64,000 nt of DNA from Escherichia coli O157:H7 (GCF_013167455.1 NZ_CP038328.1), one strand, 5' to 3'. Numbered from the stretch's first letter, positions 41,281 to 44,572 are shown. The notes: a model not told the origin generated them from the sequence alone. Made by a program: numbers and translations.

Positions 41281-41384
41281 AATTCTTGACCTCTCTTTAC
41301 TTCCTTTTATGGTAAGGGGCTGGACGCTACATTGTTAGCCAGATATTCTGCCCGGTATGTTCAAATTTCCTGAATGAGAACGAA

Positions 41385-42281
41385 ATGGCCAAAGAAAGGG
41401 CATTAACGCTGGAAGCACTACGGGTTATGGATGCGATCGATCGCCGGGGCAGTTTTGCGGCGGCAGCGGATGAGCTGGGACGCGTGCCTTCCGCACTTAG
41501 CTACACCATGCAAAAACTGGAAGAAGAGCTGGATGTGGTGCTGTTTGACCGCTCGGGCCATCGCACCAAATTCACCAATGTCGGGAGGATGTTGTTGGAG
41601 CGAGGGCGCGTTTTGCTGGAAGCCGCAGATAAACTGACTACTGATGCGGAAGCTCTCGCGCGCGGTTGGGAAACGCATCTCACCATTGTGACCGAAGCGC
41701 TGGTACCGACACCTGCCTTTTTCCCGTTAATCGACAAACTGGCGGCAAAAGCCAATACCCAACTGGCAATCATCACAGAAGTGCTGGCGGGGGCGTGGGA
41801 ACGGCTGGAGCAGGGGCGGGCGGATATTGTTATCGCGCCGGATATGCATTTTCGTTCCTCGTCGGAGATCAACTCGCGCAAGCTCTATACGTTAATGAAC
41901 GTCTACGTTGCCGCGCCTGATCACCCGATTCATCAGGAGCCGGAACCGTTATCTGAAGTGACGCGTGTGAAATATCGTGGAATTGCGGTGGCGGATACCG
42001 CTCGTGAGCGCCCGGTGTTGACTGTACAGCTGCTGGACAAACAGCCGCGCTTAACGGTGAGCACGATTGAAGATAAACGTCAGGCATTACTGGCGGGGCT
42101 TGGCGTGGCGACGATGCCGTATCCGATGGTCGAAAAAGATATTGCGGAAGGGCGGTTGCGTGTCGTCAGCCCGGAATCGACCAGCGAGATCGATATTATT
42201 ATGGCCTGGCGTCGTGACAGTATGGGGGAAGCGAAATCCTGGTGTCTGCGGGAAATTCCCAAACTTTTTAACGGAAAATAA
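41385..42281 (+). CDS. yhaJ: LysR-family transcriptional regulator
   Basis: 298-aa ORF with N-terminal HTH (LTLEALRVMDAIDRRGSFAAAADELGRVPSALSYTMQKLEEEL); divergent from yhaK. Confidence 0.9.
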   Translation: MAKERALTLEALRVMDAIDRRGSFAAAADELGRVPSALSYTMQKLEEELDVVLFDRSGHRTKFTNVGRMLLERGRVLLEAADKLTTDAEALARGWETHLTIVTEALVPTPAFFPLIDKLAAKANTQLAIITEVLAGAWERLEQGRADIVIAPDMHFRSSSEINSRKLYTLMNVYVAAPDHPIHQEPEPLSEVTRVKYRGIAVADTARERPVLTVQLLDKQPRLTVSTIEDKRQALLAGLGVATMPYPMVEKDIAEGRLRVVSPESTSEIDIIMAWRRDSMGEAKSWCLREIPKLFNGK

Positions 42282-42296
42282 TATTTATTATTGTTA

Positions 42297-42325
42297 ATAA
42301 AAAGGGGCGAAATATCGCCCCAATT
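42297..42325 (-). terminator. Bidirectional hairpin terminator between convergent yhaJ and yhaI
   Basis: ggggcgaaatatcgcccc hairpin flanked by A-run on one side and T-run on the other. Confidence 0.6.
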
Positions 42326-42331
42326 CTAAGA

Positions 42332-42688
42332 TTAATTTGAACCAAACTTCGGATCGTTTCCGTAACGATTGCTGCCAGAAGTACCTTCTGTGCAGAAAAA
42401 AACCAGAAGCACGAGCCAGCCAATAAACGGAACAAAAAAGAGCAAGGCCCAGGCACCTGAACGGTCGGTATCGTGTAAGCGACGGATAGCAAGCGCAAGG
42501 ACGGGAAGGAAGGTTGCCAGCAAATAAAGCATAGACAGATATGGAAGCTCCAGACCTAAAATCAATTGAATGACATTGATAATAGCGCCGACGATGGCGT
42601 TAATCAGAGTAAACATCCAGTACTCTTTACGACGTGCGCGACCAGAGAAACCAACATAATTTTTTAATACGGATAAATACCACTGCAT
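42332..42688 (-). CDS. yhaI: DUF805-family inner-membrane protein
   Basis: 118-aa ORF MQWYLSVLKNYVGFSGRARRKEYWMF...RRLHDTDRSGAWALLFFVPFIGWLVLLVF. Confidence 0.85.
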   Translation of the reverse strand: MQWYLSVLKNYVGFSGRARRKEYWMFTLINAIVGAIINVIQLILGLELPYLSMLYLLATFLPVLALAIRRLHDTDRSGAWALLFFVPFIGWLVLLVFFCTEGTSGSNRYGNDPKFGSN

Positions 42689-42892
42689 AAAAACATCCCT
42701 TTAATTAAAAGTGACGAAAGTCTATTCCGGGTATTGTGTAAATGCTATTCGTATCTTTCTTTTTCGGATGTTATAAAGGTTTTGATATTTAAGATAAATA
42801 CATGGTTATTTTTATAGGTAATTTATATAACGACATTGAAATATTTTAAATAAACATTAGTAAATTATTCATTCATCAACATGATGATAAAA

Positions 42893-42920
42893 GCCGGATG
42901 AGTCAGACATCCGGCGAGCA
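42893..42920 (-). terminator. Intrinsic terminator downstream of yhaH
   Basis: Minus strand: gccggatgtctgactcatccggc hairpin followed by ttttatc. Confidence 0.5.
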
Positions 42921-42928
42921 GATTTGTT

Positions 42929-43294
42929 TTAAGGTTCCAGTTTTGGATCAGGTCCAAAGCGGTTTTCGCCTGGCGTACCCGCCTGGCAGTTAAAGACGAT
43001 GATAATAAGCCAGCCGATAAACGGGATTAAGAATAGCAGTGCCCACCACGCCGAGCGGTCGGTGTCGTGCAGGCGGCGGAACTGAACTGCCCACCACGGT
43101 AAAAACACCAGAATACCGTAGATTGTCGTCAGGATGCCTTCGCCACCAGCGCGTTGCCAGCCTAACATTTTATCCAGCAGCCCCAGCACGAACGTAAAGA
43201 TGATGTTGACCAGAATAAACATCCAGTACTCTTTGCGCCGCGCACGACCCCGGAAACCGACATAATTTTTTAGTACTTTCAGATACCAGTCCAT
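42929..43294 (-). CDS. yhaH: DUF805-family inner-membrane protein, paralog of YhaI
   Basis: MDWYLKVLKNYVGFRGRARRKEYWMF...RRLHDTDRSAWWALLFLIPFIGWLIIIVF (121 aa). Confidence 0.85.
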   Translation of the reverse strand: MDWYLKVLKNYVGFRGRARRKEYWMFILVNIIFTFVLGLLDKMLGWQRAGGEGILTTIYGILVFLPWWAVQFRRLHDTDRSAWWALLFLIPFIGWLIIIVFNCQAGTPGENRFGPDPKLEP

Positions 43295-43379
43295 TTTTGC
43301 CTCAATTTTGCTCAATCACTTGTTTTTAAAGCAGCAAATTAAGAATAGACGTGAATGAAATGGCAGTAAATATTCGTTC

Positions 43380-43545
43380 AAGGAATTAATAAAGTGCTGT
43401 GAAGGCGCGCTAAGACTGATGACAAGCGCAAAATTGCCAGATGCGCTACGCTTATCTGGCCCGCGCGGTCATTGCAACATATTGAATATAAAAGTTTTGT
43501 AGGTTTGATAAGGCGTTCATGCCGCATCCGACATGAACAACATGC
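43380..43545. repeat. REP/BIME palindromic units
   Basis: tgccagatgcgctacgcttatctggcc ... gtaggtttgataaggcgttcatgccgcatccgacatg. Confidence 0.7.
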
Positions 43546-43585: not shown

Positions 43586-44572
43586 TTAACCTAAGCGAAC
43601 ATCTCGTCCATGCGGTTCATCGAGATCCTGCCACGGACCAATTGAAATAATCCGCGTAGGGTTGATGGTCTTATGACTGCGGAAGTAATGATTACGGATA
43701 TGATCGAAATTGACTGTTTCGGCAATTCCCGGCATCTGGTAGATATCACGCAGGAAGCCATACAGATTAAGGTAATCGCTGATGCGGTGCTTATCACACT
43801 TGAAGTGGGTCACATACACTGGATCAAAACGGACCAGCGTGGTCCACAGGCGAATATCGGCTTCGGTTAGCTGGTTGCCGGTCAGGTAACGATGCTGACC
43901 TAAAATCTGTTCCAGTCGCGCCAGCGATTCAAACACTTTCTCCACCGCTTCGTCGTAGGCTTGCTGGCTGGTGGCAAAACCAGCTTTATACACGCCGTTG
44001 TTAACGGTGTCATAAATCCAGCCGTTAAGTTCGTCAATTTTCGTTTGCAGGGCTGGTGGGTAGTAATCACCCGCTTTCGCGCCCAGCGCATCAAACGCGG
44101 TATTAAACATGCGGATGATTTCTGCTGATTCGTTGCTGACGATGGTGTGGTTCTTTTTGTCCCACAGCACGGGAACAGTAACTCGTCCGCTGTAGTGTGG
44201 ATCGGCGTGGAGATAAAGCTGATACAAAAATTCATGTTGATAGAGCGTGTCTCCGGTTGCTCCCGGAAAACTGTCATCAAAGGTCCAGCCGTTTTCCAGC
44301 ATCAGCGGGTTCACTACGGAAACGGAAATAAACGGTTCCAGTCCTTTGAGTTTGCGCATGATCAGCGTGCGGTGCGCCCACGGGCAGGCGAGTGAAACAT
44401 AGAGATGATAACGATCTTTCTCTGCGATAAAACCGCCTGTGCCAGTGGGGCCAGGAGCGCCATCGGCAGTGAGCCAGTTACGAAATGCGGAAGCTGAACG
44501 TTGAAATTTACCGCCGGTAGATTTGGTATCGTACCAGGTGTCATGCCAGACGCCGTCAATCAGTTGACCCAT
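43586..44572 (-). CDS. yqjG: Glutathionyl-hydroquinone reductase (Xi-class GST)
   Basis: MGQLIDGVWHDTWYDTKSTGGKFQRSASAFRNW... with CPWAHR active-site motif (328 aa). Confidence 0.9.
   Translation of the reverse strand: MGQLIDGVWHDTWYDTKSTGGKFQRSASAFRNWLTADGAPGPTGTGGFIAEKDRYHLYVSLACPWAHRTLIMRKLKGLEPFISVSVVNPLMLENGWTFDDSFPGATGDTLYQHEFLYQLYLHADPHYSGRVTVPVLWDKKNHTIVSNESAEIIRMFNTAFDALGAKAGDYYPPALQTKIDELNGWIYDTVNNGVYKAGFATSQQAYDEAVEKVFESLARLEQILGQHRYLTGNQLTEADIRLWTTLVRFDPVYVTHFKCDKHRISDYLNLYGFLRDIYQMPGIAETVNFDHIRNHYFRSHKTINPTRIISIGPWQDLDEPHGRDVRLG

Follow-up and report, generated by a model that had tools for sequence, protein, structure and literature searches.

A conserved yhaH and an accessory yhaI: two DUF805 genes at a probable gain-and-loss site between yqjG and yhaJ of Escherichia coli

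Gene content of the yhaH-yhaI locus

A stretch of 64,000 nucleotides of Escherichia coli O157:H7 (GCF_013167455.1, NZ_CP038328.1), in the following called the window, was analyzed, and all positions are counted from its first letter. The interval 42332-43294 extends exactly from the stop codon of yhaI to the start codon of yhaH. Both genes lie on the minus strand and were identified as open reading frames and by RefSeq annotation. yhaH (42929-43294) encodes a DUF805 inner-membrane protein of 121 aa, which we regard as the conserved core copy, and yhaI (42332-42688) encodes a DUF805 protein of 118 aa, which we regard as an accessory, faster-evolving copy and which is present here as allele A. 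The coordinates agree with the RefSeq annotation of identical O157 genomes, the interval with its context (1.5 kb) is 100% identical to many O157 chromosomes, and YhaH and YhaI do not differ in sequence from WP_000384145.1 and WP_001198807.1 of K-12. The feature is known: the pair consists of the already annotated E. coli genes yhaH and yhaI.

Along the minus strand the order is yqjF, yqjG (43586-44572, the upstream neighbour of yhaH), yhaH, a 240-bp spacer (42689-42928) and yhaI. Convergent with yhaI lies yhaJ (41385-42281, plus strand), which encodes a LysR regulator and forms one boundary of the variable segment described below, with yhaK beyond it. An earlier note on this DNA had described tandem paralogues separated by a 240-bp AT-rich spacer; its coordinates proved to be exact, and the GC content of the spacer is 28.3%.

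The list of open reading frames prolongs yhaH to a TTG at 43315 (128 aa, with 43295-43315 as the extra stretch). The annotated YhaH of 121 aa is supported, since conservation across genera starts at the ATG at 43294 and a GAGGC ribosome binding site precedes it. Farther upstream, a BIME made up of two oppositely oriented REP elements occupies 43436-43535, in the interval that separates the yqjG end from the yhaH promoter, and Rfam gave a weak, sub-threshold match to the REP-derived naRNA4 at 43502-43538.

Similarity of YhaH and YhaI

In a pairwise BLASTP comparison YhaI and YhaH showed 56% identity and 69% positives (E=7e-48), far from the values below 25% at which the earlier note would have abandoned its reading of the two as paralogues. 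With the Pfam profile DUF805 (PF05656) YhaI scored 111.3 bits (E=4.5e-32) and YhaH 120.9 bits (E=4.5e-35). Both scores are above the gathering cut-off of 25.7 bits and profile positions 1-110/111 are covered, so that both proteins belong to the family with a full domain. Compared with the DUF805 family of K-12, both matched end to end, and as the proteins are identical there was no difference. The N-terminal motif noticed earlier is present as M(Q/D)WYL(S/K)VLKNYVGF(S/R)GRARRKEYWMF, the RRLHDTDRS...PFIGWL core occurs in both proteins, and the middle part diverges as described, with an indel of 4 residues. The family hallmarks GRxxRxEYW and RRLHD are invariant across the alignments, and the three hydrophobic helices typical of the family are predicted.

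The first 96 nt of yhaH and yhaI form a direct repeat that is 78% identical and spaced by 606 bp. Being adjacent on the minus strand, with 606 bp from start to start and 56% amino acid identity, the genes have the features of a tandem duplicate. Mutual closest relatives or joint inheritance, as would mark a pair duplicated in place, were not found for YhaH and YhaI. Between yhaH and yhaI, synonymous substitution has reached saturation (pS 0.78-0.84), and dN amounts to 0.40. The omega of yhaH ranges from 0.02 to 0.09, and GC3 is 0.62 in yhaH versus 0.45 (range 0.41-0.46) in yhaI.

Promoter, 5'UTR and terminators

A promoter of yhaH is predicted at 43342-43370 on the minus strand, with the -35 hexamer TTTACT (43365-43370), a 17-bp spacer and the -10 hexamer TATTCT (43342-43347). 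Both hexamers and the 5'UTR downstream of them are conserved from E. coli to Klebsiella and Kluyvera. The 5'UTR implied by the predicted promoter is ~42 nt long, which agrees with the -43 start of a Salmonella yhaH::gfp fusion (PMC5137417). This conserved 5'UTR (43295-43337, minus strand; TTTGnTGCTTTAAAAACAAGTGATTGA...GAGGC) is the probable pairing region of SdsR. In Salmonella, yhaH mRNA was described as an SdsR target, a yhaH::gfp fusion comprising -43 to +45 was repressed by SdsR, and yhaH levels climbed towards stationary phase (PMC5137417).

By a terminator scan and RNA folding, an intrinsic terminator of yhaH was located at 42893-42915 (minus strand), in which GCCGGATG-loop-CATCCGGC is followed by UUUUAU. 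The hairpin has 8 pairs and a folding energy of -15 kcal/mol (z=-4.47 versus shuffled sequence). The terminator of yhaI (42304-42321, minus strand), which is shared with the convergent yhaJ, consists of GGGGCGA-loop-TCGCCCC followed by UUUUUAUU and has 7 pairs and -16.3 kcal/mol (z=-3.9 versus shuffled). A GGGGC...GCCCC hairpin also trails yhaI in Citrobacter. Both hairpins have the properties of intrinsic terminators, as a U-run follows directly and they are more stable than shuffled sequence. Thus, the claim of a terminator hairpin for each gene was confirmed (z=-4.5 for yhaH and z=-3.9 for yhaI), and the same holds for the claim of an AT-rich region upstream of each: the 100 bp immediately upstream of yhaH contain 30% GC, and the region before yhaI contains 28.3%. 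The terminators and the conservation of the yhaH promoter and 5'UTR across genera argue for separate transcription units, although the U-run of the yhaH terminator is short and some read-through into yhaI may occur.

The spacer and regulation of yhaI

The spacer (42689-42928, minus strand), with 28.3% GC and a core of 15-20%, is presumed to be the regulatory region of yhaI. It is the lowest-GC stretch within the surrounding 10 kb (window GC 50%), and 4,338 E. coli genomes carry it with an identity of 95% or more. The corresponding spacers of Citrobacter amalonaticus, C. sedlakii and C. rodentium have a length of 217-225 bp and 28-30% GC. A scan of the 240-bp spacer detected no sigma-70 consensus promoter, and weak candidates were seen only by eye and in the alignment with Citrobacter. 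Likewise, no Rfam family matched the spacer at E<=1. A small RNA or small protein encoded in the spacer was considered and rejected, given the missing Rfam match and open reading frames of only 21-31 aa without support. A CpxR-box-like site on the plus strand (42850-42864, ATAAACATTAGTAAA) has one mismatch to GTAAA-N5-GTAAA; with 68 CpxR-box matches in the whole window versus 53 ± 8 expected, this site is a lead only. The H-NS-motif match was near chance level.

In EDL933, expression of yhaI was 36-fold lower in a ler mutant than in the wild type, and yhaI was among just four genes beyond the LEE that depended on Ler (PMC3891560). Upon CpxR overproduction in MG1655, yhaI was upregulated 3.2-fold in arrays and 40.3-fold in qRT-PCR, and yhaH 1.9-fold in arrays (PMC2731931). 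In the same work yhaJ was 2.0-fold induced by CpxR (PMC2731931), and we observed two overlapping CpxR-box-like matches with one mismatch each, together three GTAAA-like repeats with 10-bp spacing, in the divergent yhaK-yhaJ intergenic region (41286-41310). The independent regulation of the two genes that had been suggested earlier is borne out by their own terminators, by the conserved promoter and 5'UTR of yhaH and by the differing published control through Ler, CpxR and SdsR.

Silencing by H-NS that is relieved by Ler is the simplest account of an AT-rich and Ler-dependent yhaI, and we infer that the spacer may be silenced by H-NS, with Ler as anti-silencer. The base composition is that of a silenced gene (spacer 28% GC, yhaI GC3 0.45, window GC 50%). 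Like the LEE operons, stcE and lpf, yhaI has an AT-rich upstream region, a lower GC content than its neighbours, a patchy distribution and a strong (36-fold) dependence on Ler. Unlike them, it is not located on a recognisable mobile element, binding of H-NS and Ler at yhaI is only putative, and the gene can also be induced by CpxR in K-12, where Ler is absent. Moreover, the effects of Ler and CpxR on yhaI could be indirect.

The regulator gene yhaJ and the putative downstream target yhaI are convergent neighbours (41385-42688). Control of yhaH or yhaI by YhaJ was rejected as an explanation, as neither gene is named in two publications on the YhaJ regulon; as a neighbouring regulator, YhaJ is a candidate that may stand two steps upstream of yhaI in EHEC.

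Distribution of yhaI in E. coli

The distribution of yhaI was surveyed in 5,426 complete E. coli genomes. A gene with at least 95% DNA identity to that of the window, which corresponds to the allele of O157 and K-12, was found in ~2,015 genomes (~37%). A second allele, 80-90% identical, was present in 2,288 genomes (~42%), another 68 carried a gene of 90-95% identity, and in ~1,050 (~19%) yhaI was absent. Full-length yhaI was found in ~4,350 of the complete genomes (~80%).

In genomes lacking yhaI, the interval from the last yhaH codons to the stop codon of yhaJ is replaced by 33 bp. These contain a different hairpin (AAGCACC...GGTGCTT), and the C-terminus of YhaH reads KLEQE instead of KLEP. 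The points at which haplotypes with and without yhaI part are precisely the yhaH 3' end and the yhaJ stop codon, and the exact yhaI-less junction was detected in 992 genomes, including Nissle 1917 and ATCC 25922. Both strains we take to belong to phylogroup B2, as presumably does EPEC E2348/69, which may be without yhaI too. The absence from ~1,050 of the 5,426 genomes and the one precise junction in 992 of them identify yhaI as an accessory gene. The same junction is found in E. albertii and Escherichia sp. E1V33, where a REP/BIME is inserted in the hairpin.

Some further rearrangements of the locus were observed. The BIME in the yhaH/yhaJ terminator hairpin is ~175 bp long, occurs in E. albertii, Escherichia sp. 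E1V33 and one yhaI-less E. coli (locus coordinates 4370-4570), and is followed on its far side by a complete or partial repeat of the hairpin. Rare structural variants were seen in E. coli 3045, HUE1 and KOr024; among such variants, the locus is split by IS1 in two genomes, and in KOr024 an IS26 is located where yhaH and the sequence onward are lost, adjoining a truncated ptsP.

Two alleles of yhaI

The two alleles, A and B, are separated by a hyper-divergent patch of 173 bp (42381-42553, minus strand), which corresponds to nt 136-308 and codons 46-103 of yhaI. Nucleotide identity between A and B is 0.68-0.76 in the patch versus 0.94-1.00 in the flanks; 94-100% identity holds for codons 1-45 and the 15 terminal codons of the gene as well as for spacer and terminator. 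Within the patch dS is 1.03, dN 0.18 and omega 0.17, dS of the flanks is 0.07, and the contrast between patch and flank is highly significant (Fisher p=6e-15). The differences between the alleles fall across TM2, the loop and TM3. Gene conversion from yhaH was ruled out as source of the patch, as both versions are only ~0.5 identical to yhaH. The patch may have been imported from a relative not yet sampled, or it may be a polymorphism of great age.

That the T7 run of yhaI (42396-42402) might undergo frameshifting or phase variation was also considered and rejected, as 2 of the 5,426 complete genomes carried T6 and 0 carried T8. Frameshifted 'proteins' with lengths of 131 and 139 aa abound in metagenome and Logan assemblies; judged by the complete genomes, variants of the T7 run would be rare or mostly assembly artefacts.

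A rival explanation is that yhaI is a decaying, functionless duplicate that is heading for loss. The gene is dispensable in a fifth of the strains, evolves faster than yhaH and has a low GC3, and frameshifted variants exist in large assembly collections. However, omega values of 0.17-0.2, the ~4,350 complete genomes with a full-length gene, the T7 run changed in only 2 of 5,426 genomes and the strong induction (36- to 40-fold) in two independent studies argue against decay, as does the fact that Intestinirhabdus keeps only the I-type copy. We consider decay very improbable.

The yqjG-yhaJ site in other genera

The yhaH locus was taken from 80 species representatives of the Enterobacteriaceae. 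The order yqjF-yqjG-yhaH-yhaJ-yhaK is kept almost everywhere, and all 80 loci contain a YhaH orthologue of 70-100% identity between yqjG and yhaJ. In ~74 of the 80 species, including E. albertii, Escherichia sp. E1V33, Salmonella, Klebsiella and Enterobacter, yhaH is the only DUF805 gene at this site, which identifies it as the core copy.

Among the remaining loci, C. amalonaticus and C. sedlakii carry a YhaI-type copy after a spacer of 217-225 bp, and another kind of second copy is present in Huaxiibacter and in one Lelliottia species. Individual YhaI-type proteins revealed further arrangements. C. rodentium has the pair of an H- and an I-type gene. In a Superficieibacter sp., four tandem DUF805 genes adjoin yhaJ (locus 1269-3331), namely one YhaH orthologue, one YhaI-type gene and two genes that are only ~30% identical to the rest, and Intestinirhabdus alba has solely a YhaI-type gene at the position of yhaH (locus 2501-2860). 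C. amalonaticus ku-bf3 carries a single gene (locus 4001-4420) in which a yhaH body is combined with a yhaI-type tail (PKQNEMR) and a yhaI-type terminator. This gene is the scar left by the collapse of a tandem pair through unequal recombination in the conserved NRFGxDPK stretch.

In neighbour-joining analysis a YhaI-type clade was separated from all YhaH orthologues in 300/300 bootstraps. It comprises both E. coli alleles and the copies of C. amalonaticus, C. sedlakii, C. rodentium, Superficieibacter and Intestinirhabdus, and not YhaH of E. coli. The saturated pS and the 300/300 bootstraps thus indicate an old split and a single clade. For the same pair of Citrobacter species dN was 0.109 for YhaI versus 0.024 for YhaH, which shows that YhaI evolves ~4x faster, with omega still at 0.08-0.2. 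The closest relatives of YhaI outside E. coli are 60-68% identical.

The old tandem duplication suggested by the earlier note stands as regards the age of the split (saturated pS, dN 0.40, 300/300 bootstraps). It does not stand as regards the stable pair that it would imply, as yhaI is widely absent. A stable tandem duplication that arose in place long ago, with both genes belonging to the core and having become subfunctionalised, would agree with the tandem arrangement in the same orientation, the 56% identity, the own terminators and the old split. Against it stand the absence of yhaI in ~19% of E. coli, in E. albertii and E1V33, in Salmonella, Klebsiella and Enterobacter and altogether in ~74/80 species, the copy number of 1 to 4 at the site, and the yhaI-less junction that 992 complete genomes share, so that we give this explanation hardly any credence. 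From these comparisons the yqjG-yhaJ site appears to be a small gain-and-loss array and not a fixed duplicate.

In E. coli itself, yhaI may either have been gained, or an ancestral pair may have been followed by loss. A gain is favoured by the scar-free junction that is shared with E. albertii, and old retention is favoured by the distance between YhaI of E. coli and Citrobacter, which fits vertical descent at the fourfold rate. In its recent form, gain would mean that the Escherichia ancestor had only yhaH, that E. coli, once separated from E. albertii, took up spacer, yhaI and terminator as one cassette, which through recombination in the conserved flanks took the place of the 33 bp between yhaH and yhaJ, and that a second import produced allele B. 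In line with this, yhaI-less strains such as Nissle 1917 and ATCC 25922 share KLEQE and AAGCACC...GGTGCTT with E. albertii and E1V33 and contain no scar of yhaI, GC3 is 0.41-0.46 versus 0.62 and the spacer has 28% GC, the boundaries of the haplotypes lie exactly at the yhaH 3' end and the yhaJ stop codon, and the A/B patch has a depth as between species (dS ~1). However, a close donor was not found, the best relatives outside E. coli being those of 60-68% identity, and the distance to Citrobacter is the one predicted for vertical descent at the fourfold rate. Furthermore, second copies have a lowered GC3 in every species, so that a gene can be GC-poor without having come recently from a foreign source. 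We therefore regard recent horizontal gain as possible but rather doubtful.

Membrane topology and phage links

The AlphaFold model of YhaI contains helices at residues 2-12, 20-44, 50-72 and 77-100 with a moderate pLDDT of 72. A Foldseek search of the PDB with this model returned nothing below E=3.8, and a sequence search of the PDB nothing below E=0.1. The positive-inside rule suggests an N-in/C-out topology. GFP is fluorescent only in the cytoplasm. As YhaH with GFP fused to its C-terminus showed a membrane-peripheral signal (PMC3225971), a cytoplasmic C-terminus is hinted at for YhaH.

The earlier statement that the function of the pair is unknown holds for its biochemistry and no longer for phenotypes and regulators, which have already been published. 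Mutation of yhaH renders E. coli TK001 resistant to the Stephanstirmvirinae phages PhiWec188 and PhiWec190, and sensitivity to both returns on complementation with yhaH (bioRxiv 10.1101/2024.11.29.626071, PMC12695924). Similar to ManYZ for lambda, PtsG for HK97 and NfrB for N4, YhaH is an inner-membrane protein, the loss of which blocks PhiWec188/190, phages that bind LPS first. In comparison with these systems, the step that is blocked may be adsorption, DNA entry or a later one, and the observation comes from the single host strain TK001.

DUF805 also occurs in a family of phage morons, PHROG 12855, which was matched with E=8e-28 by YhaI and E=5e-22 by YhaH. The domain is shared with YhaH and YhaI at an identity of only ~36%, and as the profile has 333 positions, some phage members probably carry extra regions. 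An intact, unannotated DUF805 open reading frame of 129 aa was noticed in the Shigella Stx phage 75/02 (3971-4360), on the opposite strand between ant and neighbours of the nin region; it resembles a moron, and the same region was matched in POCJ13. Among the anti-phage defence families of PADLOC no match was found.

Discussion

Taking the evidence as a whole, we consider it somewhat probable that the locus consists of one core gene, yhaH, and one accessory paralogue, yhaI, which are separately transcribed and lie at a site of gain and loss. YhaH would be a three-helix inner-membrane DUF805 protein that is expressed from a conserved promoter and 5'UTR, and its transcript, repressed by SdsR in Salmonella, would end at its own terminator. 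yhaI would have diverged from yhaH before the separation of Escherichia and Citrobacter and would since have evolved ~4x faster, with purifying selection persisting. Depending on the lineage, the yqjG-yhaJ site would then hold an H-type gene, either singly or paired with an I-type gene, only an I-type gene, or four DUF805 genes. Copies would be lost through unequal recombination, and patches and possibly whole copies would be swapped by homologous recombination. Transcription of yhaI would start within the AT-rich spacer, be silenced by H-NS and be switched on by Ler in EHEC and upon overproduction of CpxR. In this account we only infer the silencing by H-NS, the promoter position, in what order copies were gained and lost, and any biochemical role.

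With regard to the proteins, we commit to the view of YhaH as a conserved protein of the inner membrane that cells produce throughout growth and that some phages exploit. YhaI, a dispensable paralogue with conditional expression, probably acts in the same membrane context, and a direct role of YhaI in phage interaction seems unlikely to us. As a working guess, YhaH and YhaI might form a small oligomeric membrane protein in envelope homeostasis, in which YhaI serves as a conditional alternative subunit. A more far-reaching proposal would join all these threads: the DUF805 array would be a phage-interaction module with YhaH as entry factor, YhaI and the phage morons would be alternative or dominant-negative subunits that alter or block entry, phage pressure would keep the three E. 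coli haplotypes and 1-4 copies by balancing selection, and H-NS, Ler and Cpx would time the accessory copy. The chances that this combined proposal is right are slim in our opinion.

DUF805 is widespread, its function has yet to be assigned, and yhaH and yhaI count among the y-genes of E. coli that have been little characterised. As a pair they are ordinary and annotated; the present analysis adds how yhaI is structured in the population and that copy number varies at the site. It also corrects the view of yhaI as a core gene, which matters for the comparison of regulons. Three natural haplotypes of yhaI, namely A, B and clean absence, exist in an otherwise near-identical background, and together with the inducers Ler and CpxR and the phage phenotype of the sister gene they offer a direct route to the function of DUF805 proteins.
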